From IMG/VR virus record IMGVR_UViG_3300029305_006397: a DNA stretch of 64,000 nucleotides. One strand, given 5' to 3'. Under the pieces are notes generated by a model, which ran no database searches, was not told the DNA's origin, and worked only from the letters and a program-made list of their open reading frames with translations. The translations under genes and the position numbers were made by a program. Shown here one piece after another: positions 22,730-59,979 of this stretch; the first letter of the stretch is position 1; each line of letters opens with the position of its first letter. The DNA is from a virus.

Positions 22730-23905
22730 TCAAGCTTCTGCTTTAAAATTATAGATGGGTTTAAAACGATCTACGATATCTACGGTTGGGCCAATGCAAT
22801 TAATAATTTCCTGATAATCCTTGTAAACAAAAGGAGCTTCATCCAAGGTTGATTCATTAATGCATGTGGAATATATGCCATTCATAGTTTCGGCATATTC
22901 TTCTACGGTAAATATCTTCTTTGCCTGTGCGCGAGAATACAGGCGACCAGCTCCATGAGGAGCAGAACAATTCCATTCGGTATTGCCCTTTCCTCTGCAG
23001 ATCAAAAGACCATCACGCATATTAAGAGGAATTACAAGAAACTGACCTTGCTGCGCAGAGATTGCGCCTTTGCGCAAAATCATTTCTTTCACATTGATAT
23101 AATTATGTACACTATCAATGCAATAATCGATTTCACCACCCATAGCAGATACGATTGTATGCAACATTATCCATCTATTCTGTTCAGCAAATTCCTGTAG
23201 AATTGCAACGTCATGAAGATAATCATCCATGTCCTGTCCGGTAAGATAACAAAGATCGGGATCAATTGCGATATGATGTTCAGACAGCCATTGCTGGCGC
23301 ATAACAGGTTCAATAAACTGCAGTTGCTCCATGCGCAAATTATAGTTGTATTTCTTTATGCGATTTACGGCGAGGTTCTGGTAGTATTGAGCCACTTTCA
23401 GGCCGATATTGCGACTGCCTGAATGAACAGCGATATATCCATTTTCATACGCTTCGATGAAATGGTTCCCACCTCCAAGAGTTCCAAGGGTACACTTTGC
23501 CCTTTCCTGGGTCGCTTTATCCAATTTGTCCCAGCACCGCAATTCTTCGAAATCTCGTTCCCATACCTTCTCAGTCGAATGTACATCCATACCAAACGGA
23601 ATACTAGATCGGATAGCGGCGTCCAATTCATCAAGGCGAGAATCAAAATCAATATTGGTTTGTACAAGTGATACACCACAACCGATATCTACGCCAACCA
23701 AATTCGGGCATACCTTATCCGTGATATGCATAGTAGTACCGATTACACAGCCAGCTCCGGCATGGGCATCCGGCATGATTCGAATATGTGCGTCCTTACC
23801 CAAAGGAGAATCCGCCATCTTTTTAATTTGATCGATAGCTTGATCCTCAATTGTCTTAGCATAAATGACGACATCATCACCATGGGTAGACTTATATATT
23901 TTCAC
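22730..23905 (-). CDS. rtcB: RtcB RNA 3'-phosphate/2',3'-cyclic phosphate ligase
   Basis: PDAHAGAG, GGGNHFIE, HSGSRNIG, HNY and HGAGR motifs; GTG start with AAGGTGA SD. Confidence 0.9.
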   Translation of the reverse strand: MKIYKSTHGDDVVIYAKTIEDQAIDQIKKMADSPLGKDAHIRIMPDAHAGAGCVIGTTMHITDKVCPNLVGVDIGCGVSLVQTNIDFDSRLDELDAAIRSSIPFGMDVHSTEKVWERDFEELRCWDKLDKATQERAKCTLGTLGGGNHFIEAYENGYIAVHSGSRNIGLKVAQYYQNLAVNRIKKYNYNLRMEQLQFIEPVMRQQWLSEHHIAIDPDLCYLTGQDMDDYLHDVAILQEFAEQNRWIMLHTIVSAMGGEIDYCIDSVHNYINVKEMILRKGAISAQQGQFLVIPLNMRDGLLICRGKGNTEWNCSAPHGAGRLYSRAQAKKIFTVEEYAETMNGIYSTCINESTLDEAPFVYKDYQEIINCIGPTVDIVDRFKPIYNFKAEA

Positions 23906-27449: not shown

Positions 27450-28253
27450 TCAAATATATTCAAGACCAAGTTCCACGCTATTGAAAATGCTTTCTACTTC
27501 GGTATCCATGATGCCAATATACTTTAGTGTAACTTGCGGACTGGAATGACCAAACGCCTGTTGAAGTATAACCAGTGCTTTAGACTTATCTTCTGCGTTG
27601 TGCCATCTCCAATAGCCCCACGTTTTTCTCAGTGAATGCGACCCGATATTTTGTTTGATTCCAGCTTCCGCCGCTGTATCTTTTATAACTCTCCAGAGAT
27701 ATTTAGATTCAATCGGATCGTTTCCCTTTTGAGAAGGAAAAAGGTAATCGTCTAAATTATCTATTGGGTATTCTGAAATGAAATTCATAATTGCAGCCTG
27801 TACAGTTTGATTGAAAAACAGCTTTACAAATTTCTTTTGCTTCTTTTGCTTTTGCGGTTGCAAGGCATAGAATTGTTTAAAAGCAAGGTTTCCGGCATTA
27901 TTTCGTTCGAGAAAGAACGACCAGCGCAAAGTGCGAAGATCGGATGCCCGAACACCAACATTGATTCCGATCAAAAACAGTAGCTTGTTTCGCGAAGCAG
28001 TTTTTTTGCGACATACGCCAGAAGCTGACGTAATATGTTTATCAAATATGGCGATCATCGCCTGAATTTCTTCCTGGGTGCGAAATGCGTACACTTCTGA
28101 AGATTCGCCTGCAATTTTATTATTGCGGCTTTTATTGATCGAACCATCCAGATTGTACTTGACTTTCTTTTTCTGTTTACCGCCCTGCAAAACGCTAAGA
28201 GGAACGATGTTTGAAGTGTCCCGTTCAATCGGGAAAGCGACCACATTATTCAT
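27450..28253 (-). CDS. tyrosine recombinase / integrase
   Basis: R (GVRASDL), HSLRKT, GHSS..TLKYI catalytic-Tyr region; start placed at ATG 28253 overlapping upstream stop. Confidence 0.85.
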   Translation of the reverse strand: MNNVVAFPIERDTSNIVPLSVLQGGKQKKKVKYNLDGSINKSRNNKIAGESSEVYAFRTQEEIQAMIAIFDKHITSASGVCRKKTASRNKLLFLIGINVGVRASDLRTLRWSFFLERNNAGNLAFKQFYALQPQKQKKQKKFVKLFFNQTVQAAIMNFISEYPIDNLDDYLFPSQKGNDPIESKYLWRVIKDTAAEAGIKQNIGSHSLRKTWGYWRWHNAEDKSKALVILQQAFGHSSPQVTLKYIGIMDTEVESIFNSVELGLEYI

Positions 28254-28971
28254 GTACGATTTCAATCCTTTCTTTAATTTTTGATGTGTCAATGACCAAT
28301 TCATCTTCATCTCGGCCATTGAAATAAGCGAGGATTTCAGATTTATCGACGGTTGCCCTTTGAATATAACCTTTTTCATCGGCTATATCAAAGCGGTGGG
28401 CAAACCACTTTGCAGTTTCAAGACTCCAAGTCCACGAAAGACCATTGGGGTTACGACCCACAGAGACGCCACGATATACCGTAAGATGCTGAGGCAACCT
28501 TTCGTAATAAGCAAGTTCATCAGCATCCATGAGATACTTTTTATTTGCCTGACGGAACCACGATGCAGCTGTACGCAAGGAAACATTTGCATCTTGATTT
28601 GGATTTTCTACGTTTACCCATACAGTTGCCAACATCCGATCCCGTTCTTCCTTTGAAAGATAGGTGCGGATATGTTTTAGAAAAGTAAGCTGATAAGCTT
28701 TTCGGATCATCATGACGACGCCAAATGCATTAGTTTGCTTATCAATTACCGGAAGCATTGCTTCACGAGCAAGATTAAGCTCATTTGAATCTAACAGATT
28801 CAGCATTTTCCATTCGCCATTAATCATCGCTGGATGCGTTGCAGTTTCAAAAACAGGGTGATAGAGAATAAAAGGCAAATCGCTTTGATGGATATTCATA
28901 TATAAGAATATCCTTGCCATTCTCTTGACTTCATTCAAATCAGTTTGCCTTTTCATGCTCAATTCTCCCAT
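28246..28971 (-). CDS. possible ADP-ribosyltransferase-like protein (R-S-E pattern)
   Basis: C-terminal TVYRGV...GLSWTWS...EDELVID fits the R / S-x-T / E-x-E arrangement; weak. Confidence 0.3.
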   Translation of the reverse strand: MGELSMKRQTDLNEVKRMARIFLYMNIHQSDLPFILYHPVFETATHPAMINGEWKMLNLLDSNELNLAREAMLPVIDKQTNAFGVVMMIRKAYQLTFLKHIRTYLSKEERDRMLATVWVNVENPNQDANVSLRTAASWFRQANKKYLMDADELAYYERLPQHLTVYRGVSVGRNPNGLSWTWSLETAKWFAHRFDIADEKGYIQRATVDKSEILAYFNGRDEDELVIDTSKIKERIEIVHE

Positions 28972-42102: not shown

Positions 42103-42594
42103 TTACCATTCCCCTTCCTCAAATTCAAAGCCCATAAGGTTTTCAATGCGCAGCACATGATCTTCCATCCAACGGAAATAAAAGTCATAGTGCTTGAGGG
42201 CAACATGGGTATCCATGTAGTTGAGATAGTAGGTCAAATCTTCTTCGGGATTGATTTCACCAGCATCCAGCAGATCACGATATTCGATCAGTTTGATGTA
42301 TCCATCTTCTTCATCGAAGTTTTCCACACCATCTTCCTTTGCATCTGCTGCATATCTTTCTATTTCATCTTTGATTGCTTCGCGAATATCGTCTTTATCA
42401 TTTTCAAAGGCATCGTTCAGATCGAATCTCGCCTGTTCAAATACACCTCGGAAGATAGAGTTAATATTCATATCTTTATTGGCAATCATATCCTTGAGAA
42501 TATCCCAAAGATCATACTTGACATCTTCCAGCATAGTCAGATCGCATACCCCACAATCCAGCAGAGTACAGAGAATGCTATCTTTGTAATCCAT
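42103..42594 (-). CDS. hypothetical acidic protein
   Basis: tiled minus-strand ORF. Confidence 0.6.
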   Translation of the reverse strand: MDYKDSILCTLLDCGVCDLTMLEDVKYDLWDILKDMIANKDMNINSIFRGVFEQARFDLNDAFENDKDDIREAIKDEIERYAADAKEDGVENFDEEDGYIKLIEYRDLLDAGEINPEEDLTYYLNYMDTHVALKHYDFYFRWMEDHVLRIENLMGFEFEEGEW

Positions 42595-44831: not shown

Positions 44832-45076
44832 AAGATTCTTCCTCCTATCTTTTGATAACGGATTCATGGGAGCGTTAGCGATACACCTTTATAACCGGAT
44901 GGGCAAGGCCGCTATTCTGTGATTCTTAATCTACTCTTCAGGTTAAACCCTTATGTTACCATCGGTTCCCAATCATTTAAGGCCATCCCAGGTCTTGATT
45001 CGCCTCCGTCTATCTTTCAGCGCACCCACTACTTTAGATATGTGGTGTGTAGCTTTAACCAGCCGAAGCTGGCCTA

Positions 45077-45361
45077 TCAGCGTTTGCGCTCATAAGGTTC
45101 GTACCCTTCCATGTCCCATTTTCCATCGAACAACTCTCCGTTAAGCCATCCTTCGGAGTCGAAGTAGTTGACGCGCAGCCAACCATTTTCCTGATAGGTT
45201 TTGACAATAATTTCGTCCGGGCGGACACTCATTGTAACCAACTCTCCGTTTTCATTGTGGCCGATAAAATCAGAGTCAGAGTCACCATACTCTGCCATAA
45301 TCTGTTTGCGAACCTCGACTTCGCCAAATCGTGCGGACAGTTCATTGGGAATGCTTTTCAT
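45077..45361 (-). CDS. hypothetical protein
   Basis: start at MKSIPNE (ATG 45361) with GGAGG SD. Confidence 0.55.
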   Translation of the reverse strand: MKSIPNELSARFGEVEVRKQIMAEYGDSDSDFIGHNENGELVTMSVRPDEIIVKTYQENGWLRVNYFDSEGWLNGELFDGKWDMEGYEPYERKR

Positions 45362-46014: not shown

Positions 46015-46063
46015 ACCTTCCTTCTTTTCTTTTAGCATATCGGATACTTTGGATTTTCCGATG

Positions 46064-46098
46064 TAGCATTAAAGAATCAGGAGAGGCTTTCGCCTCTC
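46064..46098 (-). terminator. possible intrinsic terminator
   Basis: GGAGAGGC-GAAA-GCCUCUCC hairpin then UGAUUCUUUAAU on minus strand. Confidence 0.4.
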
Positions 46099-46124
46099 CC
46101 TATCTCCCATCTGCGTTTATGCTG

Positions 46125-46460
46125 TTAGTCACCGCCGACTGCGCCAACCACCAAACAATCGTATTCTTCCGGCAGGTCATAGTCCCAATCAAGCTGGGCT
46201 TCAACGTACAAAACCTTTTCAACGTACAGGATTTCGCCAAACTGACAGAGGAAATCTTTGGCCTGTTCTTCATACCGGGCATCACAGGTTACAAATACGC
46301 TGTTCGTTCCGGCAAGATTTTCCAGCTTAAAAAGCTCCTCATTGTCGCGCACGTTATTGAAGATCGCAAGGAAATCTCTTGCATACTTGTTCAGGTCTGC
46401 GCTCAGTTCGACCTTAATCTGCACGGCATCCTTCTTCTCCGTATAAAACTTCATCTTCAT
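46125..46460 (-). CDS. hypothetical protein
   Basis: start at ATG 46460 by analogy with the conserved leader. Confidence 0.55.
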   Translation of the reverse strand: MKMKFYTEKKDAVQIKVELSADLNKYARDFLAIFNNVRDNEELFKLENLAGTNSVFVTCDARYEEQAKDFLCQFGEILYVEKVLYVEAQLDWDYDLPEEYDCLVVGAVGGD

Positions 46461-46498
46461 GTGATTTTCCATCCTTTCTTTTCTTGCAGGTGTGGCTT

Positions 46499-46588
46499 CC
46501 TACGACACAAGCGGAAGGAAAGATAGGAAGGAAGAAAACCTTCCGCTTGTCATTTCGGCTGGTTGCCGTCCAGCTCTCGTCAGGTAGG
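46499..46588 (-). ncRNA. hammerhead ribozyme, type I (HH-5)
   Basis: minus strand CCUAC-CUGACGA-G..stem II..C-GAAA-12-bp stem III-GUC/GUAGG; predicted cleavage between 46504 and 46503; UGA stop of 46580..46786 lies inside the CUGACGA core. Confidence 0.8.
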
Positions 46589-46786
46589 TGTGGTTAATTT
46601 GAATGATTTGGTAGTCAATGCTGCCAGCTTTTGTTCGCAAGCGGTGTAGCTACCTCTATAAATGGTTTTCCAGTTATAACGGCATCTGCCGCCAACAGTG
46701 TAGAATCGTCTTTCTTTGAGTTCCCATACAGGCTTCAGGTCAAAGCCAATCGTTTCAGAAATTACATATCTTGCTTTGTTAGCCAT
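46580..46786 (-). CDS. hypothetical protein
   Basis: GGAGGCAAC SD; last codons and stop overlap HH-5. Confidence 0.55.
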   Translation of the reverse strand: MANKARYVISETIGFDLKPVWELKERRFYTVGGRCRYNWKTIYRGSYTACEQKLAALTTKSFKLTTPT

Positions 46787-46794
46787 GTTGCCTC

Positions 46795-46986
46795 CTACTT
46801 AATCGCAATGCGTTTAGAATTGTTCTCCAAGACAGCTTCAATTTTCCGTTTGACATGCAGCATGTTTTCTTTTACATGATTTGCAAGGGCTTCCATACCC
46901 TCTGTAGGATTTTCCATGCTATCTGCTTCATGCTGCAATGCGTTCATAATCCATCTAAGCTCGTTATGAGTTAAGGTCTGCATCAT
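46795..46986 (-). CDS. hypothetical protein (63 aa)
   Basis: start moved to MMQTLTHNEL (ATG 46986); longer track ORF reads through HH-4. Confidence 0.5.
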   Translation of the reverse strand: MMQTLTHNELRWIMNALQHEADSMENPTEGMEALANHVKENMLHVKRKIEAVLENNSKRIAIK

Positions 46987-47022
46987 TTGTAGACACCCTC
47001 TTTCTTTTCTATATGGTGATTT

Positions 47023-47089
47023 TCCACGACACAGCCGGAATTTTCCGACTATGTTTCGACCGGGCATCACCCGGTTCTCGTCAGGTGGA
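47023..47089 (-). ncRNA. hammerhead ribozyme, type I (HH-4)
   Basis: UCCAC-CUGACGA-G(A)ACCGGG-UGAUG-CCCGGUC-GAAA-CAUAGUCGG-AAAAUU-CCGGCUGUGUC/GUGGA; predicted cleavage between 47028 and 47027. Confidence 0.85.
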
Positions 47090-47092
47090 TTG

Positions 47093-47254
47093 TTACTTGA
47101 GTTCCCATTTTTCCATCCACGGCTCTCCTTGCCGATCATACTTATCTGCGTACATTCGATCAAGGGCTTCCTGCGCTTTCTTTTCCGATGAATAGATTTC
47201 TCTGATTCCTTCGTCACCATAGCAGCCGGACATGATAACGTAAACGTACTTCAT
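47093..47254 (-). CDS. 53-aa protein
   Basis: own translation MKYVYVIMSGCYGDEGIREIYSSEKKAQ...; GGAGGT SD; stop directly abuts HH-4. Confidence 0.45.
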   Translation of the reverse strand: MKYVYVIMSGCYGDEGIREIYSSEKKAQEALDRMYADKYDRQGEPWMEKWELK

Positions 47255-47263
47255 ACATACCTC

Positions 47264-47479
47264 CTAACCATCATTCCATGCGTAATCGTACCAGAGGGAA
47301 ATCACATCGTTTTCCGGCTCAAAAGGCGTATCATCAAACGACAGGGCATTCAGACCTTCATCCTTAAGCCGCTGCATTGCCATCGTTTCCAGCTCCTCGT
47401 TGGATTTTCCGACTGCATCTTCGTCGTCAATGTATACCTTATAGAAACGCTTTACCTCAGCCATGATAGCTACTGCCAT
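47264..47479 (-). CDS. hypothetical acidic protein
   Basis: conserved leader GGAAAGATAGGAGGAAAC upstream. Confidence 0.55.
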   Translation of the reverse strand: MAVAIMAEVKRFYKVYIDDEDAVGKSNEELETMAMQRLKDEGLNALSFDDTPFEPENDVISLWYDYAWNDG

Positions 47480-47575
47480 AAGTGTTTCCTCCTATCTTTC
47501 CTTATGCGTTTGGCTTTAGGGGCTTGTGACCTTATGCCTTGCCGCATTAACAGGGCTTATGCCCTGCCACTCTGC

Positions 47576-47761
47576 TTAATCTCGATTGGAAAGCTCCGTG
47601 TGATAGATATGCACACTCTGAAGGCGTCTGCTTCCAAATTTCCGTCGAAATTCCTCTTTCGCATCTTTCATGTTTGCCTTGCTACCGTTTCGATGATCGC
47701 TTACATACTCAAATTCTCCGTAATCGTGACCATCATCATAAAGCGCAATGTAGTTTTTCAT
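47576..47761 (-). CDS. hypothetical protein
   Basis: tiled minus-strand ORF, no motif. Confidence 0.55.
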   Translation of the reverse strand: MKNYIALYDDGHDYGEFEYVSDHRNGSKANMKDAKEEFRRKFGSRRLQSVHIYHTELSNRD

Positions 47762-47772
47762 GCCGCCTCCTG

Positions 47773-47970
47773 TTAATCCATAGTGTAGTCATTGATTCTA
47801 CAAAATTCCGACCAGTCTCCGCCAAGTCGCCGGATAAGCTCCCTTTCGATCTTGACGCGCTCTTGCGGATAACGCTTGTTCTTCGGGTAGAGGATTTCCT
47901 GCGCAACAATGATTCCATAGGTGCTTACCAAATCTTCATGCGAATAATCCATGTACTTGTTTTTCCGCAT
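47773..47970 (-). CDS. hypothetical protein
   Basis: tiled minus-strand ORF, no motif. Confidence 0.55.
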   Translation of the reverse strand: MRKNKYMDYSHEDLVSTYGIIVAQEILYPKNKRYPQERVKIERELIRRLGGDWSEFCRINDYTMD

Positions 47971-47973
47971 GGT

Positions 47974-48219
47974 TTAACCCTCCATCATGCAGCCCATTTC
48001 AAGCTGTACACGGTGATTGAAATCTTCCATCGCAGCCTTAAGGTCATTCAGGAAGTAATGACCGTGACAATAGGATTTTCCGTTCATACAAAACCATGTA
48101 ATCCACATGATTCCCTGACTTGTTTCAGTTTTTGCCAGAACAACTTCGCCCTCAATGACAGGCTCCGCATGGATAATCTCACAATTTTCCGAGTAGTTTT
48201 TGTTGTAGCGCCTTTCCAT
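47974..48219 (-). CDS. hypothetical protein
   Basis: conserved leader GGAAAAGATAGGAGGAAAC upstream. Confidence 0.55.
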   Translation of the reverse strand: MERRYNKNYSENCEIIHAEPVIEGEVVLAKTETSQGIMWITWFCMNGKSYCHGHYFLNDLKAAMEDFNHRVQLEMGCMMEG

Positions 48220-48274
48220 GTATGTTTCCTCCTATCTTTTCCTTATGGTTTCCATGGATATTTCCATGGGGTTT

Positions 48275-48342
48275 CCCACGACGCTCTCAGGATTTTCCAT
48301 CAAGCGTTTCGGTTGCTAACCGGGCAGCCATCATCAGGTGGG
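48275..48342 (-). ncRNA. hammerhead ribozyme, type I (HH-3)
   Basis: CCCAC-CUGAUGA-U-stem II-GAAA-CGCU..AGCGUC/GUGGG; predicted cleavage between 48280 and 48279; stem II pairing less regular. Confidence 0.7.
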
Positions 48343-48343
48343 G

Positions 48344-48547
48344 TTAAAAAACGAATCCGGCATAAACCATCTTGTTTCCGTCCAGCATCCTCCATGCGTT
48401 AGCATCGTCCCATGCCGTACAACAGTAACGTTTTTCCGACCTGTCATATTCGCCGCGGATATAGACCCGATTTGCAGACTCTTTCAACTTGAAAAATTCT
48501 CCATGCTTCAGGTCTTTCAGCTTGTACATTCCTGCATCTCTTTCCAT
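48344..48547 (-). CDS. hypothetical protein
   Basis: stop TAA abuts HH-3 stem I. Confidence 0.55.
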   Translation of the reverse strand: MERDAGMYKLKDLKHGEFFKLKESANRVYIRGEYDRSEKRYCCTAWDDANAWRMLDGNKMVYAGFVF

Positions 48548-48548
48548 G

Positions 48549-48743
48549 TTAGGCTCCCTTCTTAATCCGCTTTACTTCGATATGATCGTAGCCTTTATCC
48601 GGGTGAAGAAAATTCCGAATACCATAGCTTCGTGCTTCCTGCTCATTAGTTGCTTCGATCTTGTGATATTCCAAGGCCATGCCAGATTTTCCGACACCAA
48701 TTCGATAGAGATATTTCCTTGCCATTGTGCTTCCTCCGTTCAT
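48549..48743 (-). CDS. hypothetical protein
   Basis: ATGA overlap with upstream micro-ORF. Confidence 0.55.
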   Translation of the reverse strand: MNGGSTMARKYLYRIGVGKSGMALEYHKIEATNEQEARSYGIRNFLHPDKGYDHIEVKRIKKGA

Positions 48744-48913
48744 TTACCGATTGCCTCGGCGTAGTATTCGTCGAAATTTCCGAAAACTTCCAGATACACC
48801 ATGCCACCATTGCCCCGATAAGGCCGGATATTTTTCATGATGAATCGATATTCCGTGAACATCAATGCAAGCACACAAAGGGCAATACATGCTCCAATCG
48901 CCAGCTTTTTCAT
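48740..48913 (-). CDS. 57-aa membrane micro-protein
   Basis: own translation MKKLAIGACIALCVLALMFTEYRF...; conserved leader upstream. Confidence 0.45.
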   Translation of the reverse strand: MKKLAIGACIALCVLALMFTEYRFIMKNIRPYRGNGGMVYLEVFGNFDEYYAEAIGK

Positions 48914-48949
48914 GATTTTCCTCCTATCTTTTCCATGTGGTTTTGACTT

Positions 48950-49015
48950 CCCACGACAGGCCAGCTCAAGGCCAGCCTGTTTCGGCTCGTTGTCAACTCG
49001 CCATCGTCAGGTGGG
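48950..49015 (-). ncRNA. hammerhead ribozyme, type I (HH-2)
   Basis: CCCAC-CUGACGA-U-GGC(GA)GUU-GAC-AAC(GA)GCC-GAAA-CAGGCUGGCC..GGCCUGUC/GUGGG; predicted cleavage between 48955 and 48954. Confidence 0.75.
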
Positions 49016-49020
49016 TATGC

Positions 49021-49482
49021 TTACCATTCCTCCAATTCTTCCTCCAGATCGGCGATTTCTTCCTCCAGATCATCGGCATCCGACTGGTAATTGCTTCTCC
49101 AGATTGCCATTCTCAGGCTTTCGATTTCTTCCTCGTCCAGCTCATTCATTCCGGCAAGCTCACGATTGGAATTGATTTCGTCGATTTGTTCCTCGACTTC
49201 TTCTTCGTAACTTTCCTTGAGTTCTTCCAGCTCGTACTGTTTTTCTTCCAGTTCGGCGCGGATAACTTTCTCGGAACGGATTCCAACCCATTCATACACG
49301 GATTCCGGCTCAAACCAAAGCAGATCATTTAGACCAGTTTCGGTCATTCCATCCGGGTACAAATCCTCCAGAACAGCCTCCAGCTGCGCACATTTTCCGG
49401 CGTTGCGTACACGATCAAGGGTATCGACAGCTCCAGACCATGCCTCGAAAGTTTCCAAATCAAGCTCGTATGTGATTTTCAT
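49021..49482 (-). CDS. hypothetical highly acidic protein
   Basis: C-terminal half very E/D rich; stop 5 nt before HH-2 stem I. Confidence 0.6.
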   Translation of the reverse strand: MKITYELDLETFEAWSGAVDTLDRVRNAGKCAQLEAVLEDLYPDGMTETGLNDLLWFEPESVYEWVGIRSEKVIRAELEEKQYELEELKESYEEEVEEQIDEINSNRELAGMNELDEEEIESLRMAIWRSNYQSDADDLEEEIADLEEELEEW

Positions 49483-49589
49483 TGTAAAATTCCCCTTCCT
49501 ATCTTTCCAAATGATTGACAGGAAGGGGCAAACTATGATATATTTCTGTATAGGAAGGGCGGAAGGAAATTCCCTCCACCCCCATGCGG

Positions 49590-49673
49590 TTAGATTTCGT
49601 CCGGGTTATCCGTGGCGCGAATAATCCCATCAGACCACATCCAGCCGTATTTAGTCCGATACAGGGCTTTCAT
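49590..49673 (-). CDS. possible 27-aa micro-protein
   Basis: own translation MKALYRTKYGWMWSDGIIRATDNPDEI; leader AAAGATAGGAAGGAGG upstream. Confidence 0.3.
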   Translation of the reverse strand: MKALYRTKYGWMWSDGIIRATDNPDEI

Positions 49674-49699
49674 GGCGGTTGTCCTCCTTCCTATCTTTT

Positions 49700-49734
49700 T
49701 ATAAAAAGCGGTCTTGTGTTGGTAGCACAAGGCC
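49700..49734 (-). terminator. possible intrinsic terminator or attenuator
   Basis: GGCCUUGUG-CUACCAA-CACAAGACC then GCUUUUUAU on minus strand. Confidence 0.4.
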
Positions 49735-49958
49735 GTTTTTATCTTTTAAAGCCGTTTTTTCTACGATACGGCAAAACGCTTGACCCATGCTATATGGGAA
49801 TGAATCGGGGTTCAAGGGATTGCCCCGGTCGCCTCCAGCCGTGTTCTTACATGCCGCTGGACACAGGTAGCCTGCATAATCATCTCATTCTCCGGCTACA
49901 GAGTTTTGCGCGGTTTCGATAGACGCACATTTATTGGCGGTTGCTATCGGGAATGGTT

Positions 49959-50020
49959 AACCCAGACCAGCCCATGTGGGCGTGGTTTCGTCGCAATTTT
50001 CAGCGACTCGTCAGTGGGTT
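49959..50020 (-). ncRNA. hammerhead ribozyme, type I (HH-1)
   Basis: AACCCA-CUGACGA-GUCGC-UGAAAAUU-GCGAC-GAAA-CCA(C)GCCC-ACAU-GGGCUGGUC/UGGGUU; predicted cleavage between 49965 and 49964; overlaps stop of 50011..50208. Confidence 0.85.
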
Positions 50021-50208
50021 TCAGGGTATTCCATTGCTATGGCTCTGACGGCTTCAATATCCGTCAACATTCCTCTTTCATATACGCGCAAAATATTTTC
50101 TATGCGTGTTTTTCTTAATTCTTTGATAGACGTTAACATTAACGTATTTTCTGCATCTGTCTGAAGCATATCTTGCGCAAACTCATGCACATAGCGTTTT
50201 CTTCTCAT
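50011..50208 (-). CDS. hypothetical protein
   Basis: last codons and UGA lie in HH-1 stem I and core. Confidence 0.55.
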   Translation of the reverse strand: MRRKRYVHEFAQDMLQTDAENTLMLTSIKELRKTRIENILRVYERGMLTDIEAVRAIAMEYPETH

Positions 50209-50230
50209 GTTTATACCTTCCCTTCTCTTT

Positions 50231-50298
50231 CCATACCCACGCCCCGGCAGGGCGTGACGCTCACGGCTTAAATGGCTTTTTATAGTCGCCGTGACGAC
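50231..50298 (-). ncRNA. pistol ribozyme (P-2)
   Basis: GUCG-UCACGGC-GAC-UAUAAAAAG-CCAU-UUAA-GCCGUGA-GCG-UCACGCCC-UGCCG-GGGCGUGG-GU-AUGG; loop/GCCGUGA pseudoknot and CCAU/AUGG helix; predicted G/U cleavage between 50236 and 50235. Confidence 0.75.
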
Positions 50299-50610
50299 TC
50301 AGACAATTATGCAGCGTTTGAACGGATTTTCGCAGGGGTCGCAACCGAAACCGAAATTTTCTCCGTATATATCGATATACTGAAGTCCAGCGAATTTGCC
50401 GTTCTGAATGGTTTTTAACTCCATTGTAGCGCGGCGCATAGCCTGTTTTGCCTGTTTAATGGTTACGTCGTCGATATTGTAGAATCTGTTTAGCTTGTTT
50501 TGAATTTTATTCAAGAAATTCATTGCAAGGTCATTTGTAACATTCTTTTTATCGGACTCCATGAAACAGTCAAACCCGTATGCACGAAGATAAAAACCCT
50601 GTTTTTTCAT
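50299..50610 (-). CDS. hypothetical protein
   Basis: stop abuts pistol P-2. Confidence 0.55.
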   Translation of the reverse strand: MKKQGFYLRAYGFDCFMESDKKNVTNDLAMNFLNKIQNKLNRFYNIDDVTIKQAKQAMRRATMELKTIQNGKFAGLQYIDIYGENFGFGCDPCENPFKRCIIV

Positions 50611-50633
50611 TGTATAACCCTCCCTATCTATTT

Positions 50634-50698
50634 TTGAACCCGCCCCAAACGGGGCGACGCTTTGGGCCTAATCAACTATTTAAAGTCGCCCAAACGAC
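50634..50698 (-). ncRNA. pistol ribozyme (P-1)
   Basis: GUCG-UUUGGGC-GAC-UUUAAAUAG-UUGA-UUAG-GCCCAAA-GCG-UCGCCCC-GUUU-GGGGCGG-GU-UCAA, near-identical in layout to the published pistol consensus; predicted G/U cleavage between 50639 and 50638. Confidence 0.85.
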
Positions 50699-50955
50699 TA
50701 AACGCGCATTACATTGTCAAGATAAATGCGCATTGCACCCTTACGAATATATGCCCGACCTGCCGTCGAATAGTGGACTTTATGACGATGAAAACCCACA
50801 TATCCTTCAGGGTTAACCCATGCCGCAATATAATCGCATTCGAATTTATCGCCGTCGTCGGGTTCCCAAAGTGCAACGCCGAAACAGTTGGAAAAATGGC
50901 AAACGCCAACCGGGGCAATATTAGAATAACGCTTGTAAAGTGCTACATTTTTCAT
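50698..50955 (-). CDS. hypothetical protein
   Basis: stop codon G is the first nt of pistol P-1. Confidence 0.55.
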   Translation of the reverse strand: MKNVALYKRYSNIAPVGVCHFSNCFGVALWEPDDGDKFECDYIAAWVNPEGYVGFHRHKVHYSTAGRAYIRKGAMRIYLDNVMRV

Positions 50956-50989
50956 TGTGTTTTACCTTCCCTCTTTTTTTTAGGTTATT

Positions 50990-51044
50990 CACCCGACGCC
51001 CGGCAGGGCGTTTCGTCTTAATTTTCAAAGACTCTTCAGGGGCG
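50990..51044 (-). ncRNA. hammerhead ribozyme, type I (HH-6)
   Basis: CGCCC-CUGAAGA-GUCUU-UGAAAAUU-AAGAC-GAAA-CGCCC-UGCC-GGGCGUC/GGGUG; predicted cleavage between 50995 and 50994. Confidence 0.9.
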
Positions 51045-51047
51045 TTA

Positions 51048-51368
51048 TTATCTCAAGTTGTCGTTATATGCAATATCCCTGTTTTTGATTGCAATTTCGA
51101 TTCGCTTTTTGCTAACGTCGCCGCCGAAAATGTGACGGGCGTATTCGCGCAAAAACTCATAGAGATATTTTGCGGTTGTATTGGAGTAACACCAATTCCG
51201 ACCCAAAGTCAACGCCGCCGCGCCCTGCGCGTCATAATCAACGATTGCAATAACGCTGTCATAAGACTGGAAAATAACAGCATTATTGGAGTGAATGATA
51301 AACTGGTTTGCAACGGGGCGACCACTTCGGGGGGATACCATGTTCCTAACACTTGCATATTTCATCAT
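51048..51368 (-). CDS. hypothetical protein (first gene of the ribozyme-punctuated operon)
   Basis: GGAAGGTG SD; conserved motif copy 27 nt upstream. Confidence 0.6.
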   Translation of the reverse strand: MMKYASVRNMVSPRSGRPVANQFIIHSNNAVIFQSYDSVIAIVDYDAQGAAALTLGRNWCYSNTTAKYLYEFLREYARHIFGGDVSKKRIEIAIKNRDIAYNDNLR

Positions 51369-54589: not shown

Positions 54590-54648
54590 TCTAAAATTCT
54601 CAGACTAAGTAAGGATGAATGAAATGGGTAAATAAAGAAGGTGTTTGT

Positions 54649-57534
54649 ATGCCTCTGGATAAGCAAATTCAAATTATCTCGACTGATACTGCGGGATTCT
54701 ACAGCAACCATGAGGCAAGGTTGCATTTGAAAAATCATAAACTTCGAAGCGAAAGAAAAATACTTAAAAAAGGCGGAGTCGTTAAAAGAGCAAATGGAGA
54801 CAAACGGATCGTTATTGGTTTAGATGAAATTGAAAATAAGCTTGCCGTATTTGGTATTTACTCTACTGACATAGAAGACATCATAAACGAACGCTTTAAT
54901 TTTGACGACTATACCTTAGAGGATATAGGCGAAATTAAGCATTTGATTTCCGATTACAACTTGAAAAAGAAGCTAATTGAAATCAAGAACGCTGCAATCA
55001 GCGAAAGCAAAGAGCAGCTTTTGAAGCTCTTGGCGAATAAAGTCCAGGAGAACGTAAGCTCAAATGGAAGGCATCATACGAGGTACTTGAGAGAGAATAG
55101 CGTTGTAAACAGTAATATCATTTCGGTATTTGATTCGTCCTTTACGAGAATGATCGGAGCAAAGGAAAATGAATTATGCGAAGATTTTATGGTGATTCAG
55201 GTATTTTACTTTGATGTATTGAAAGATATTCTGTATCATGGGTATACATACAAGGGCGAGAAATATATTTATTTTACTTCATCTGCCGGACAGATCAGGA
55301 CAAAAAAAGCGGTTTTTGTAAAAGAAAAAATCTGGAACGAGCATGAGCGTACAATTATGTGTGGATTAACGCTTGACGAGATAAATCGCAAGGGAGGTAA
55401 CAATCCCAATAAGCATCTGGCTTATATGGCTTTGAGCAATTCAGCCACTGATTTGTGGCCTGAGTTCGATATTGATAAAGCCATTGTAATCGATGATTTT
55501 GAAACCAATGTATTTGGAACCTACGATCTCGTGGATGATGCGGACTATACTATTACCAGGGTTTCAGATTTTGTTCCTATATCTCATACAGATGGCGCTG
55601 GTATGATACTCCCCTGTGCCTTTGGAAAGACCCAGAAAAATAAAATGGTTCGATTACCGTGGATTAAAGGATTGCTTGGCGTTTTTGATTTTAGGAAGTT
55701 TATAATTGATCAAGGAGCTTCGCCAGTAATTCGAGATATTTACGGAAAAGAACACAATTTGATTTCCGAAGATATCCAGGTAGTTTTCACCAAATCTCAG
55801 CATAAAATGTGGAAATACTATAACTCCTGGAACGAATATAAAGCGGCTTATAAGAAATATGGTTGTACTGCCGGATATACCAATGAAGAAGAGTTGAATA
55901 TTCCTAATGCGTCCATCAACTATCAAATGCTTCAAACACTGACGGATATTACTCCGGAAGAGATTTTAAAAATTGCAAATAAATCTATTGGCTGTTTGGA
56001 AAATATGACGAGCAGTATAGATAACATTCGAGCAGCATTTGGTGGAGCAAATTATAATCAGGATAAGAGTAGTTTGAACAAAGCATTAGATTTATACCCT
56101 GATCTATTAAACGATGATTGGATTAAGAGAACCCTCCGGGCAATTCGCGATAGCTTGATCAAGGATTATAAAGCTGGAAAATTGAGAGTGCGAGGCAAAT
56201 ACACATTCTTACTCCCTGATTTTTATGCTGCATGCCAATATTGGTTCCTTGGGATCGAGGAACCGGAAGGGCTTTTGCAAGATGGAGAGGTATTTTGTTG
56301 GTTATTTCCTGAAAGCGAAAAATTAGATTGCTTGCGAAGTCCTCATTTATATCGCGAACATCCTATTCGCAGGAATGTCGCATGGATAGGTTATAAAGAA
56401 AGACAAGCCAAGATCAGAGAATGGTTTGGTACAAACGCAGTTTATACGAGCTGCCATGATTTGATCAGCAAGATTTTGCAGTTTGATGTTGACGGAGATA
56501 AGAGTCTGGTGGTGGCAGATAAAACTATTATTGACGTTGCAGAGCGTAATATGCAAGGAATTGTTCCTTTGTATTATAACATGCGTAAAGCTTCTCCAGT
56601 GCAATTGAATAACGAAACGATCTATAACGGGTTGAACGCAGCATTTGTTGGCGGTAATATTGGAATATACAGCAATAATATTTCAAAGATTTGGAATAGT
56701 GAAGTTTTCATAAGCGGCAGCAATGAAGAACGTCGGGAAGCATTGGATATTATTAAGTTGCTTTGTATGGAAAATAATTTCGTTATCGATTATGCCAAAA
56801 CTCTGTATAAACCAGAACGCCCTAAGCACATTCACGAAAGAATCCTGGCCTTTACAAGAAATAAGCTTCCTCATTTTTTCGTTTATGCTAAAGACAAGCT
56901 GGACGATCAAGTGGAAAAACGCAATGGCAGTTTCGTAAATCAGTTGGATGATATAATACCTGTCCCCAGGTTCCATTTCAAAAAACTTGGTTTAGAAAAA
57001 GTTGAACATAGGTTTTTAATGCATGATTCAAATTGCACTGCAAGAGTAGCTTTTACAGATTCGGGTAAAATCATTTCAGAAGAGACAGACCCTTTAATTT
57101 TGGCGTACCATGCATTAAATAAAAAATATTTTTTGGACTTGGGAGAAGTATTACAGGTGAACTATTGCAATACTGAGTTGATATCAATATACGCTAAAAA
57201 TGGTGCTCTTGCCAAGAAGCAGCAAATGATCGAAGAAACGAAAAGCATTCTATCTGAATTTGGATATAATCAAAATCAAATTGTAGATATTTTAGTCGAT
57301 TATGTGTATGGGAAAAATAGGTCGAATGCAAAAGCACTGCTATGGCTTTGCTATGGCGATTCGATTTATAAGAATATGCTACAATATTTAATTCCGGATT
57401 TTAAGACGATACAGTGCGTAGATTGCGATGCATTATTTTCTGTTTCTGCTAAAAATCAATATGCATGCCGTTGTCCAGAATGTGCTAAAAAGCAGAAAAA
57501 GGCCGAAAGGCAATTAAAAAAGATGCTGTCTTAA
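54649..57534 (+). CDS. YonO-like single-subunit RNA polymerase (two-barrel, RdRP-related family)
   Basis: FTSSAGQIRTKKAVF, LRSPHLYREHP and metal-binding QFDVDGDKSLVV motifs in the order seen in YonO and cellular RdRP-type polymerases; start placed at ATG 54649 (track start 54619). Confidence 0.65.
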   Translation: MPLDKQIQIISTDTAGFYSNHEARLHLKNHKLRSERKILKKGGVVKRANGDKRIVIGLDEIENKLAVFGIYSTDIEDIINERFNFDDYTLEDIGEIKHLISDYNLKKKLIEIKNAAISESKEQLLKLLANKVQENVSSNGRHHTRYLRENSVVNSNIISVFDSSFTRMIGAKENELCEDFMVIQVFYFDVLKDILYHGYTYKGEKYIYFTSSAGQIRTKKAVFVKEKIWNEHERTIMCGLTLDEINRKGGNNPNKHLAYMALSNSATDLWPEFDIDKAIVIDDFETNVFGTYDLVDDADYTITRVSDFVPISHTDGAGMILPCAFGKTQKNKMVRLPWIKGLLGVFDFRKFIIDQGASPVIRDIYGKEHNLISEDIQVVFTKSQHKMWKYYNSWNEYKAAYKKYGCTAGYTNEEELNIPNASINYQMLQTLTDITPEEILKIANKSIGCLENMTSSIDNIRAAFGGANYNQDKSSLNKALDLYPDLLNDDWIKRTLRAIRDSLIKDYKAGKLRVRGKYTFLLPDFYAACQYWFLGIEEPEGLLQDGEVFCWLFPESEKLDCLRSPHLYREHPIRRNVAWIGYKERQAKIREWFGTNAVYTSCHDLISKILQFDVDGDKSLVVADKTIIDVAERNMQGIVPLYYNMRKASPVQLNNETIYNGLNAAFVGGNIGIYSNNISKIWNSEVFISGSNEERREALDIIKLLCMENNFVIDYAKTLYKPERPKHIHERILAFTRNKLPHFFVYAKDKLDDQVEKRNGSFVNQLDDIIPVPRFHFKKLGLEKVEHRFLMHDSNCTARVAFTDSGKIISEETDPLILAYHALNKKYFLDLGEVLQVNYCNTELISIYAKNGALAKKQQMIEETKSILSEFGYNQNQIVDILVDYVYGKNRSNAKALLWLCYGDSIYKNMLQYLIPDFKTIQCVDCDALFSVSAKNQYACRCPECAKKQKKAERQLKKMLS

Positions 57535-58222: not shown

Positions 58223-58300
58223 ATGGAAGTAGTTTAAGGCAAAACAGCTGAAGGTACAAAACAAAAACGGAAGTTGAGGGTGCAAATCCCTCCTTCCATC
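58223..58300 (+). other. tRNA-like element without anticodon arm (T-loop UGCAAAU)
   Basis: acceptor ATGGAAG/CTTCCAT, D-like hairpin GTTT-AAGGC-AAAC, A-rich linker, T-arm GAGGG-TGCAAAT-CCCTC. Confidence 0.35.
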
Positions 58301-58305
58301 CGTAT

Positions 58306-58383
58306 TGCGGAGTGGAGAAGCGGACTATCTCGCCAGCCTCATAAGCTGGAGATCGCTGGTTCGAATCCAGCCTCTCGCAACCA
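58306..58383 (+). tRNA. tRNA-Met(CAT), irregular acceptor stem
   Basis: D, anticodon (CUCAUAA) and T arms align with bacterial tRNA-fMet layout; ACCA end; one extra nt or mismatch in acceptor. Confidence 0.7.
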
Positions 58384-58386
58384 CAT

Positions 58387-58461
58387 GTGGAGTTCGTATA
58401 ATGGTTAGTACCTGAGATTTTCAATCTCAAAACAGGGGTTCAACTCCCCTACTCCTCACCA
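58387..58461 (+). tRNA. tRNA-Glu(TTC)
   Basis: 75 nt cloverleaf; anticodon loop UUUUCAA; CCA encoded. Confidence 0.8.
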
Positions 58462-58630
58462 GTTAGTTTTTTGCTGTAATGATCTTCGGACTTATGGCTT
58501 AAATCGCATGCTTCGGATTCCTTCGGGGCCGAGGCTTTATTTTGAAAAATTGTTCGCTAGTCAGTATGCGACTAATAAAATACTGATCAGAAACTACCAT
58601 CTGATTTCTTTTAAATCAGGTGGTTTATAT

Positions 58631-58707
58631 CAGGGTGTATATCAGTTTGGTAGATGGCCGCATTTGGGATGCGGAGGCCGCTGGTTCGAATCCAGTCACC
58701 TTGACCA
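58631..58707 (+). tRNA. tRNA-Pro(TGG)
   Basis: 77 nt cloverleaf; C1-G72; anticodon loop UUUGGGA; CCA encoded. Confidence 0.85.
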
Positions 58708-58748
58708 TGATCGTACTCAAGAATGCTACGGCGCTTGGGTCTATTTAT

Positions 58749-58776
58749 AGGGTGGCGATGCCACCCTTTTATTTTT
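58749..58776 (+). terminator. intrinsic terminator inside tRNA island
   Basis: AGGGTGGC-GAT-GCCACCCT followed by TTTTATTTTT. Confidence 0.65.
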
Positions 58777-58780
58777 ACAT

Positions 58781-58870
58781 GCTGATATGGCCGAGTCTGG
58801 CTTAAGGCGGTGGTCTTGAAAACCATTGGAGGTAACACTCACGGAGGTTCGAATCCTTCTATCAGCGCCA
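58781..58870 (+). tRNA. tRNA-Ser(TGA)
   Basis: 90 nt type II; anticodon loop CUUGAAA; CCA encoded. Confidence 0.85.
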
Positions 58871-59023
58871 GTATTAGCTCTCCTGCATAAAAATGTGCTA
58901 TTGATGACAGAAACAGGAGATAAGAGTCCCGCAAGTAGACACGCGGTTCAGTGCTCGTACAGGTGTTTTGTTGAGCAAGCAGTCTATTAAGAATAAACAC
59001 TGACAGCAGGAAAGACTGCATAT

Positions 59024-59115
59024 GGAGAGGTGGCTGAGTGGCTGAAAGCGGCACCCTGCTAAGATGTTTGCCCTGGTGACAGGGCACGAGAGTTCGAATC
59101 TCTCCCTCTTCGCCA
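59024..59115 (+). tRNA. tRNA-Ser(GCT)
   Basis: 92 nt type II; anticodon loop CUGCUAA; long variable arm; CCA encoded. Confidence 0.8.
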
Positions 59116-59286
59116 AACAAATGTGGTTCCGGTAGAGCCTGACGCATCAGTACCGACCTTGATGGAAAGGGTATCCCGTAGCTAAGACGAGTCCATAGGC
59201 GGGGATTTCTGCCACGTTGATTTAGCTCATCTGCCAAGTGCAGAAGGAGTTCCTGGATGTGTTACACAACTAGCGCATCCTGATTT

Positions 59287-59361
59287 GGTTCTATAGTTTA
59301 GGGGCTAGAATGCCAGCCTGTCACGCTGGAGACACGGGTTCGATTCCCGTTAGAGCCGCCA
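59287..59361 (+). tRNA. tRNA-Asp(GTC)
   Basis: 75 nt cloverleaf; anticodon loop CUGUCAC; CCA encoded. Confidence 0.85.
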
Positions 59362-59420
59362 ATTTGCCTCACACGCCTCTTTGTCGTATGACAAATGCGG
59401 ACTAAGTGAGGTTTTTTCAT

Positions 59421-59496
59421 GGGGTTATAGCTCAGTTGGAAGAGCGCGTGCTTTGCAAGCATGAGGTCAAGGGTTCGAGACCCTTTAGCTCCACCA
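59421..59496 (+). tRNA. tRNA-Ala(TGC)
   Basis: 76 nt cloverleaf; G3-U70; anticodon loop UUUGCAA; CCA encoded. Confidence 0.85.
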
Positions 59497-59498
59497 AT

Positions 59499-59570
59499 CG
59501 CCGGGTGGTGTAAATGTTAGCACCGCAGACTATGATTCTGCGAATAAAGGTTTAAATCCTTTTCCGGCGA
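59499..59570 (+). tRNA. atypical tRNA with anticodon ATG (formally His), no CCA
   Basis: acceptor CGCCGGG/TCCGGCG, D-arm GTGT..GCAC, anticodon arm GCAGA-CUAUGAU-UCUGC, T-arm AAAGG-TTTAAAT-CCTTT. Confidence 0.5.
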
Positions 59571-59903: not shown

Positions 59904-59979
59904 GGCATCATAGCTCAGTCGGTAGAGCAGCTGGCTGTTAACCAGCAGGTCAAGAGTTCGAGCCTCTTCGGTGCCTCCA
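59904..59979 (+). tRNA. tRNA-Asn(GTT)
   Basis: 76 nt cloverleaf; anticodon loop CUGUUAA; CCA encoded. Confidence 0.85.

Follow-up and report, generated by a model that had tools for sequence, protein, structure and literature searches.

What self-cleaving RNAs do between the small genes of a phage is the question raised by IMG/VR virus record IMGVR_UViG_3300029305_006397, a contig of 64,000 nucleotides (nt) that was analysed in full and is referred to here as the window. Within 4.6 kilobases (kb) of its minus strand, nine known ribozymes (six type-I hammerheads, two pistols and one Twister-P5) punctuate the leftward block of small genes of an SPbeta-like temperate phage whose inferred hosts are gut or rumen Clostridia. 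All nine are encoded on the same strand as the genes and keep register with the gene boundaries. What the thousands of small self-cleaving ribozymes of bacteria and phages are for has been an open question since 2011; a 2019 review (PMC6765202) still calls their function unresolved, and a literature search turned up no more recent paper with an answer. The evidence presented below suggests that the ribozymes probably form an insulating array, which would divide a long transcript into short messenger RNAs (mRNAs).

Nine known ribozymes in one gene block

A first-pass annotation, made from the sequence letters, had claimed eight ribozymes in this block. All eight are present, but a ninth, a twister, had been overlooked, together with two copies of a further structured RNA that is here called motif X. 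The two pistols lie where they had been annotated, and both exceed the gathering score of the corresponding Rfam model. At gathering thresholds, an Rfam scan of the whole window returned four ribozymes: three pistols, of which the third lies in a distant transfer RNA (tRNA) array, and the Twister-P5.

Pistol 1, 50634..50699, minus strand: RF02679, 68.4 bits (gathering 34.5); predicted G/U cleavage at 50639/50638
Pistol 2, 50231..50299, minus strand: RF02679, 67.9 bits (gathering 34.5); predicted G/U cleavage at 50236/50235
Twister-P5, 47517..47576, minus strand: RF02684, 50.9 bits (gathering 37.6), model positions 1-58 of 58

Both pistols cover the full length of the model and have P1-P3, with the GU preceding the 3' strand of P2, and their P1-loop pseudoknot covaries between the two copies (UUGGGC/GCCCAA versus CACGGC/GCCGUG). 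For the twister we take the cleavage site to be the U/A step at 47549/47548, placed from published knowledge of the family.

Two subfamilies of phage hammerheads

The six hammerheads were annotated at sites that are borne out by a descriptor search of the whole window. The descriptor asked for CUGANGA, GAA and H17, together with a stem II closed by G..C, a stem III of 3 base pairs (bp) or more closed by A..U, and a stem I of 4 bp or more. It found exactly six sites in 64 kb on both strands, the same six as in the first-pass annotation, against a chance expectation of 0.027 sites (mean of 150 dinucleotide shuffles). The type-I core (C3-U4-G5-A6-N7-G8-A9, G12-A13-A14 and the A15.1-U16.1 pair), with stem I open and stems II and III closed, is complete in all six, with C17 at the cleavage site. 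An independent covariance model (R1), built from 30 class-2 hammerheads of other IMG/VR contigs and including no window sequence, also matched only these six sites in the 64 kb, with E-values spanning 3e-13 to 6e-11 for HH3-HH6.

HH1, 50990..51044, minus strand: type-I hammerhead, class 1; descriptor match; R1 28.4 bits, E = 2.6e-5; predicted cleavage 50995/50994
HH2, 49959..50020, minus strand: type-I hammerhead, class 1; descriptor match; R1 18.4 bits, E = 0.013; predicted cleavage 49965/49964
HH3, 48944..49015, minus strand: type-I hammerhead, class 2, with 3' tail; R1 55.4 bits, E = 1.3e-12; predicted cleavage 48955/48954; loop II UGAC pairs with tail GUCA (48947-48944)
HH4, 48270..48342, minus strand: type-I hammerhead, class 2, with tail; R1 57.7 bits, E = 3e-13; predicted cleavage 48280/48279; loop II GGU pairs with tail ACC (48272-48270)
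HH5, 47017..47089, minus strand: type-I hammerhead, class 2, with tail; R1 54.4 bits, E = 2.4e-12; fold z = -4.3; predicted cleavage 47028/47027; loop II UGAU pairs with tail AUCA (47020-47017)
HH6, 46494..46588, minus strand: type-I hammerhead, class 2, with a long stem III; R1 49.2 bits, E = 6.1e-11; predicted cleavage 46504/46503; loop II GGC pairs with tail GCC (46496-46494)

The sites fall into two subfamilies, with HH1 and HH2 forming class 1 and HH3-HH6 forming class 2. In class 1, stem II and loop II read GUC-NN-UGAAAAUU-NN-GAC (GUCUU-UGAAAAUU-AAGAC in HH1), and both window copies fit exactly a 26-base pattern, CTGANGAGTCNNTGAAAATTNNGACGAAAC, that has more than 120 matches in IMG/VR. 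The free NN/NN positions of stem II pair in 115/115 unique matches, using four pair types, and 95 of them combine H17 with complete stems III and I of unrelated sequence. Loop UGAAAAUU is invariant and the A just 5' of stem I is 97% conserved; no partner of the loop was identified. The class-1 MAFFT alignment (A1) is poorly aligned at its 3' end, and these results come from the exact pattern fit and a covariation count in Python. The minimum free energy (MFE) fold of HH1 is the three-way junction, and that of HH2 is the hammerhead itself (z = -3.8).

The class-2 consensus consists of CCCAC-CUGAYGA followed by a single additional nucleotide, stem II (6 bp, with a loop of 7 nt), GAAAC, stem III and GUC-GUGGGA. 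In HH3 and HH4 one extra U stands between A9 and G10.1, as in about half of the 30 class-2 relatives. The alignment of these 30 sequences is 96.5% paired, with compensatory changes at 11 of 18 pairs and a covariation score of 0.53, compared with 0.15 in shuffles and about 0.1 when pairing partners are slid. Furthermore, nucleotides 3-5 of loop II pair with tail nucleotides 8-10 past the cleavage site. All three pairs of this pseudoknot are present in 94% of 54 unique class-2 sequences (66% in shuffles), with U-A 30 and C-G 22 at the first pair, G-C 47 and A-U 5 at the second and G-C 50 at the third. In the window, each of the four copies maintains the pseudoknot with a sequence of its own. Because the pseudoknot includes the tail, the class-2 ribozymes reach about 10 nt past the 3' ends that had been annotated, at sites that are otherwise right. 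A protective 5' hairpin on the 3' cleavage product was also considered; it is significant at 3 of 6 window sites and modestly enriched in 187 relatives, and the loop II-tail pseudoknot accounts better for the conserved tail.

Comparison with the Rfam models, the check that the first-pass annotation had proposed, gave a divided outcome: both pistols exceed their gathering score, but no hammerhead model reaches its own. In a permissive Rfam scan of 44-54 kb the best scores were 18.1 bits for Hammerhead_1 (gathering 34; 51045-50996), 19.1 bits for Hammerhead_3 (gathering 48.5) and 25.8 bits for RAGATH-1-hammerhead (gathering 56.3). Scores below threshold had been named in advance as grounds for refutation and, taken literally, this is what was found for the hammerheads. 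Since the descriptor, the independent model R1 and the class-1 pattern all support the sites, the low scores reflect the Rfam models and not the sequences: the phage type-I subfamilies are not covered by these models. Among about 200 phage type-I hammerheads identified in IMG/VR with the descriptor, none was reported at gathering thresholds in the loci scanned (L001-L164, L177, L184 and L209), and neither subfamily appears to be represented in the current hammerhead seed alignments of Rfam. It is extremely improbable that the sites are inactive relics or chance matches, as scores of 18-26 bits against gathering values of 34-56 and stem II defects in HH3 and HH4 might suggest, given six descriptor sites where 0.027 were expected, R1 E-values down to 3e-13, complete cores, a pseudoknot kept by covariation inside the window itself, and related phage hammerheads that also all score below the Rfam thresholds. 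Judged by their sequences, the six are genuine members of the self-cleaving type-I hammerhead family.

The enlarged stem III loop of HH6 contains CCUUCCUAUCUUUCC (46531-46517, minus strand), a perfect 15-nt complement of the leader of gene g6, GGAAAGAUAGGAAGG (49508-49494); it also fits the downstream leader of HH6 itself at 12/15 positions. This segment could be an anti-leader acting in cis or in trans, or a by-product of pyrimidine-rich and purine-rich composition.

Register with stop codons and leaders

The annotated rule that each ribozyme begins at or within a few nucleotides of the upstream stop codon holds for all nine known ribozymes. HH1, HH3, HH4 and HH5 begin 3, 5, 1 and 3 nt past the stop codon (at 51050-51048 for HH1). 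Pistol 1 overlaps the TAG at 50700-50698, pistol 2 begins on the last base of the TGA at 50301-50299 and the twister on the last base of the TAA at 47578-47576. In HH2 and HH6 the UGA within the CUGA box doubles as the stop codon (50013-50011 and 46582-46580), and the upstream open reading frame (ORF; 50208..50011 and 46786..46580, respectively) consequently reads through the 5' strand of hammerhead stem I.

The same register is seen in other viral contigs, from which 184 unique type-I hammerheads were surveyed. Where an upstream ORF was present, its stop ends -10 to +20 nt from the ribozyme start in 133/173 cases, compared with about 10% of random positions, and the CUGA-box UGA serves as stop codon in 27/173. 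The next ATG lies 20-60 nt past the cleavage site in 119/172.

On the downstream side, a leader and an ATG had been described 20-40 nt after each ribozyme. This arrangement applies to eight of the nine, with the ATG 22-55 nt from the ribozyme end. HH2 departs from it: this ribozyme is followed by 285 nt without coding sequence, among them a bidirectional terminator-like hairpin, and by g5, a doubtful 27-codon ORF. The leader, a purine-rich extended Shine-Dalgarno sequence, is repeated in the block, but less uniformly than had been proposed: exact GAAAAGATAGGAGG occurs just twice, and five further minus-strand copies have one or two mismatches. At up to 3 mismatches there are 18 matches, against 6.5 expected, and all minus-strand matches with up to 2 mismatches fall within the block.

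48920..48933 and 48241-48228, minus strand: exact leader GAAAAGAUAGGAGG, purine-rich extended Shine-Dalgarno
47501-47488, 49508-49495, 49700-49687, 46483-46470 and 44854-44841, minus strand: leader copies with 1-2 mismatches

Known ribozymes occupy 9 of about 17 gene junctions. Junctions come in two sizes, either 1-14 nt, without a ribozyme, or at least 87 nt, and nine of the long gaps hold a known ribozyme. The resulting units contain, in order, 1, 1, 1, 1, then 1, 3, 3, 2, 2 and 1 genes, at odds with the strictly single-gene units first proposed. This gene map is concordant with independent gene calls on near-identical contigs.

g1, 51048..51368, minus strand: first gene of the block, 106 amino acids (aa); ORF with Shine-Dalgarno; L209 orthologue with 57% identity
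g2 50955..50698, g3 50610..50299 and g4 50208..50011 (together 50011..50955), minus strand: three single-gene units, ribozyme-bounded
g6, 49021..49482, minus strand: 153 aa; identical protein on 16 contigs
g7-g9, 48344..48913, minus strand: three-gene unit between HH3 and HH4; 57, 58 and 67 aa; internal junctions of 14 and 1 nt
g10-g12, 47576..48219, minus strand: three-gene unit between HH4 and the twister; 81, 65 and 61 aa
g13-g14, 47093..47479, minus strand: two-gene unit between the twister and HH5; 71 and 53 aa
g15-g16, 46580..46986, minus strand: two-gene unit between HH5 and HH6; 63 and 68 aa
g17, 46125..46460, minus strand: between HH6 and motif X; 111 aa; L184 orthologue with 41% identity, E = 1e-20
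Terminator-like hairpin, 49704..49740, both strands: located between HH2 and g6; bidirectional, intrinsic type, with 17 bp and U-runs on both strands

The block had also been described as one operon. This is uncertain because of the non-coding stretch with the bidirectional terminator-like hairpin after HH2, and the hairpin may split the block into two transcription units.

The sequence around this hairpin presents additional features. On the plus strand, 49515-49750 resembles a small-RNA gene lying opposite the block, with a near-consensus candidate promoter (TTGACA-18 nt-TATATT with TG, 49515-49544) and the strong terminator at 49704-49740. The candidate RNA, with a length of about 195 nt, would lie antisense to the doubtful g5 and carries, just before the terminator, CCUCCUUCCUAUCUUUUU, the complement of the shared leader/Shine-Dalgarno; no homologue was found among the fetched loci. 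The minus-strand gap before g6 (49589-49483) has no ribozyme but two strong hairpins (fold z = -4.3). In the second, CCCCUUCCUGUC is predicted to pair with the g6 leader/Shine-Dalgarno (GAUAGGAAGGGG), and this hairpin may be a translation-blocking structure.

Interchange of ribozyme classes in related phages

The conservation of this architecture was assessed in 80 homologous regions, fetched with the YonO-like RNA polymerase of the phage as anchor. In the locus L184, whose polymerase is 58% identical, six hammerheads and two pistols alternate with 9-10 small genes over 3.2 kb, and the loci L209 and L177 have one pistol and four hammerheads each. The window had been put forward as an unusually clean case. 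Its array is neither unique nor the densest, given the eight ribozymes of L184 in 3.2 kb, and the arrangement was published in 2011.

Orthologous junctions can be occupied by different classes. L209 encodes orthologues of g1 (57% identity, E = 2e-39) and g2 (54% identity, E = 7e-38). Between g1 and g2 the window has a hammerhead where L209 has a pistol; after g2 the two are reversed, a pistol in the window corresponding to a hammerhead in L209. Genes g3-g5 are absent from L209, where that hammerhead joins g2 directly to g6; the units hence seem, from these comparisons, to behave as modules. In L184 the g17 orthologue is followed by a hammerhead, whereas the window has motif X at that position. 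Hammerhead, pistol and motif X replace one another at orthologous junctions and, because unrelated folds occupy the same junction, it appears that cleavage itself, rather than any particular RNA, has been selected. Among cultured phages, a relative of the class-1 hammerhead is found between two small genes of Agathobaculum phage AB434P2 (OP172633.1, about 42217-42298), whose host is Agathobaculum butyriciproducens DA434.

Motif X, a structured RNA placed like the ribozymes

The two copies of motif X in the window lie downstream of HH6, and R2 denotes the covariance model for this motif.

Motif X copy 1, 46029..46126, minus strand: three-stem RNA between g17 and g18; R2 74.5 bits; fold z = -4.5
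Motif X copy 2, 45014..45093, minus strand: R2 70.4 bits; homologous element in L184

The motif is a three-stem junction of about 85 nt with about 30 near-invariant nucleotides, AA-N-GCUGAU-G ... UAAAGCUACA ... A-N-AUCCAAAGUA. Stem P1 (agcau/augcu) leads into the junction AA-N; P2 (GCU/AGC) encloses an internal loop, GAU(G)/UAA, and a variable hairpin, and is followed by the junction UACA; P3 has 5-6 bp and the loop A-N-AUCCAAAGUA. All 13 modelled pairs present compensatory changes across 78 distinct sequences, mostly from gut and rumen metagenome contigs. Paired cells amount to 96.3%, against 72.4% in shuffled and 25-44% in slid alignments, a comparison that favours structure since the alignment was fitted to the model.

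Motif X shares the stop-codon-to-ribosome-binding-site placement of the ribozymes. The upstream stop ends -13 to +17 nt from its start in 17/19 cases, and a Shine-Dalgarno with a start codon lies 11-35 nt 3' of it in 15/19. The motif itself supplies the stop codon, from a conserved UAA or from the UGA in GCUGAU; the latter terminates the ORF upstream of copy 2. It follows hammerhead/pistol arrays in two related phages: L184 has three copies (2643-2557, 1327-1243 and 621-527) just downstream of its ribozyme array. Motif X was also found in L209, L177 and elsewhere, and forms arrays of its own between small phage genes, such as four copies in 1.7 kb in L371.

No relevant Rfam 15 match was obtained at E<=10 with the most permissive filters over the 1.1 kb scanned, the cultured-phage collection returned no match, and a literature search with the conserved strings retrieved unrelated primers only. 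A permuted hammerhead was considered and rejected: the motif contains CUGAUGG, but it misfits the block model of PMC10085705 and the string is partly base-paired. According to the accounts in PMC4604425 and PMC5737381, gene context of this kind led to the discovery of twister-sister, pistol and hatchet. On sequence and context, motif X may tentatively be considered a hitherto undescribed class of self-cleaving ribozyme or, at the least, a new kind of element in RNA processing, although the balance leans against this assignment.

Proposed insulation and its rivals

The organisation described above is best accounted for by an array in which self-cleaving RNAs punctuate the small-gene block and insulate its units from one another, and we regard this as the probable role. 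Each ribozyme would fold during transcription and cut itself, so that a long transcript would yield about ten mRNAs of one to three genes. In type-I hammerheads and pistols the cut falls at the 3' edge; the compact, folded ribozyme, ending in a 2',3'-cyclic phosphate, would thus cap the 3' end of the upstream mRNA, while the downstream mRNA would begin with a 5'-OH and a short (27-69 nt) purine-rich leader with a strong Shine-Dalgarno. Insulation would then consist in defined ends for each unit, stability and translation independent of its neighbours, and units that can be gained, lost and swapped as modules. Cleavage in vivo, and insulation as its benefit, are what we infer from the family membership of the elements, their register, the conservation of the architecture and the interchange of classes.

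Several observations sit uneasily with this account. Most of the RNA-polymerase relatives have no detectable ribozymes in the homologous region, and because of this the architecture, although recurrent, is dispensable for the lineage. The terminator-like hairpin at 49740-49704 and the long non-coding stretch do not fit a simple single operon. Stem II of HH3 has a tandem G.A and its MFE fold is not a hammerhead, and stem II of HH4 has one C.A mismatch. A translational switch, in which cleavage would free the Shine-Dalgarno, receives no support from the modelling and was rejected as a general mechanism: predicted accessibility barely changes at the eight ribozyme junctions that directly precede a gene. 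Lastly, RNase J1 degrades the 5'-OH product of the glmS ribozyme in Bacillus subtilis (PMC3328962), and cleavage in a Firmicute host could accordingly destabilise the downstream mRNA rather than stabilise it.

Of the competing explanations, the one that survives best treats ribozyme and leader as cassette boundaries, conserved module edges in DNA or RNA at which small accessory genes recombine, with cleavage secondary or selfish. Genes g3-g5, present in the window and absent from L209 between the conserved g2 and g6, are as this view would have it, and so are the repeated leader, the lack of the elements in most relatives and the almost invariant class-2 stem I and tail (CCCAC...GUGGGAARCCAC) found across many phages. 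The compensatory changes in all helices and in the pseudoknot nevertheless show selection on the folded RNA, and the classes that swap at the same junction are unrelated and have no common sequence for recombination. As a replacement for insulation the cassette model is unlikely, but it is compatible with an insulating array and does not exclude it.

Somewhat less likely still, but a serious rival, is that the ribozymes act as decay timers or attenuators. Here cleavage would destabilise the units, its 5'-OH ends feeding the 5'-to-3' exonuclease RNase J1 of the Firmicute host; unit lifetimes would be short and promoter-independent, and RNase J1 chasing the polymerase might produce graded, attenuated expression along the block and fast shut-off. 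The degradation of the glmS product in B. subtilis (PMC3328962) is a precedent. The block adjoins a divergent regulatory region (51.4-53.5 kb), which suggests early genes, and only 27-69 nt remain before the ATG after cleavage. Every cleaved leader, on the other hand, has a strong Shine-Dalgarno near its new 5' end. Elements of this kind (STAB-SD type) block RNase J1 in Bacillus. Nothing in the sequence tells the decay-timer model from insulation.

It is improbable that the ends of units flanked by two ribozymes are ligation substrates, joined by the phage RtcB or by the reverse hammerhead reaction into circular or rearranged RNAs. The phage does encode RtcB (23905..22730), which joins 2',3'-cyclic-phosphate and 5'-OH ends such as ribozymes make, and a type-I hammerhead keeps its catalytic body on the 2',3'-cyclic-phosphate end (PMC3088659). 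But the gene adjoins a tRNA array, itself with a pistol, so that tRNA repair is the conventional reading, and circular or spliced products were looked for and not found by Perreault et al. (PMC3088659). The 3' strand of stem I of a class-2 hammerhead can pair with the 5' strand of the next one for 58% of neighbours, compared with 16% of random pairs. This enrichment is confounded by the near-invariant class-2 stem I and by the search pattern, and the compatibility fails for class 1, pistols and the twister; it was dropped as evidence of circularisation.

Relation to known systems

The first-pass annotation summarised the literature accurately in stating that hammerheads and pistols co-occur in phage contexts and that their function there is unresolved (PMC3088659, PMC6765202, PMC4604425). 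Clustered hammerheads flanking single genes or short blocks were reported in prophages in 2011, with examples in Clostridium scindens, at Agrobacterium tumefaciens ardA and in Azorhizobium caulinodans; for tandem prophage hammerheads cleavage was observed in vitro as well as in E. coli, and the authors proposed that transcripts are processed into single-gene mRNAs (Perreault et al., PMC3088659). The window follows this scheme, with coding-strand ribozymes that flank single genes or short blocks of variable phage genes, mostly of unknown function. It differs in its greater density (nine in 4.6 kb) and its mixture of three classes, and it adds the exact stop-codon register, the class interchange at orthologous junctions and motif X. 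The array is hence a very dense, mixed-class case of an arrangement known since 2011, and what is new here is the class interchange and motif X.

As reported through PMC4604425 and PMC5737381, Weinberg et al. (2015) found hammerhead, twister and pistol ribozymes within a few kb of one another near phage genes, mostly in Firmicutes. That work, in so far as those accounts present it, is one of statistical association, whereas the window offers a gene-by-gene layout and orthologous comparisons. The theta (hepatitis delta virus-like) ribozymes described beside tRNAs in gut phages (10.1101/2023.06.13.544163) are likewise small ribozymes of gut phages, where they serve to form RNA ends, and the window too has a pistol in a tRNA array; as described in that source, they are of another class and their substrate is tRNA rather than mRNA. 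The glmS ribozyme resembles the predicted behaviour of the window elements in that a bacterial mRNA cleaves itself, but it is metabolite-dependent and lies in a 5' untranslated region, whereas the window ribozymes have no ligand domain and lie between genes.

The array may be regarded as a natural counterpart of the engineered ribozyme insulators of synthetic operons. In RiboJ, the synthetic insulator of Lou et al. (2012), a ribozyme upstream of the ribosome-binding site reportedly gives a context-independent 5' end. There the ribozyme stays with the downstream mRNA, whereas in the window the type-I hammerheads and pistols would leave it on the upstream mRNA, and the downstream mRNA would have a nearly ribozyme-free leader.

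So far, the cleanest comparative case for selection on RNA cleavage itself comes from this locus and its relatives. They also provide two phage hammerhead subfamilies beyond the Rfam models, nine explicit predicted cleavage coordinates for use with metatranscriptomes, Agathobaculum phage AB434P2 and its host as a cultured pair that has one such hammerhead, and a well-supported new RNA motif.

Phage context and neighbouring features

The block belongs to a phage context that includes an integrase gene (28379..27450), tRNA arrays and a YonO-like RNA polymerase of 971 aa (54619-57534, plus strand). The latter matches the Pfam family RdRP (PF05183); its identity is 43-46% with YonO of SPbeta and phi3T and with a protein of a Clostridium botulinum phage. 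By these similarities it is a YonO-type polymerase encoded by the phage, and it identifies the phage as SPbeta-like and temperate. The same phage recurs at 99.9-100% identity in several samples, among them ERZ27248370, ERZ27248446 and JGI 3300018475, 3300024270 and 3300024303, and these near-identical copies contain no informative variation.

A Pfam search with ten proteins of the block returned no match. A homologue search with g1 across IMG/VR also found none, but tblastn on the fetched loci did give homologues. Upstream of g1, about 650 nt of non-coding sequence (52055-51369, minus strand) separate the gene from a promoter-like site, TTGACG-17 nt-TAACAT, at 52055-52027 (minus strand), with short repeats of the GGAACC/CGGAAC type around 52010-51950. 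Two non-coding stretches of about 180-220 nt lie within the block (45010-44831 and 49958-49741, minus strand), for which Rfam gave no match and the fetched loci no homologue; a BLAST search with 49970-49470 against all fetched loci likewise gave no match. The first of the two stretches has a single CUGAAGAG, without a hammerhead.

The third pistol of the window (21878-21809, minus strand; 61.6 bits) lies within a tRNA array, with no credible ORF around it. Directly 5' of this array is the RtcB RNA ligase gene (23905..22730, minus strand; Pfam PF01139, 214.6 bits), and the array also contains a RAGATH-36 RNA at 19192-19031; gene and array together occupy 23905-18778 on the minus strand. A second tRNA array, at 58223-60174 on the plus strand, has an embedded drum RNA (59675-59782, 62.1 bits).

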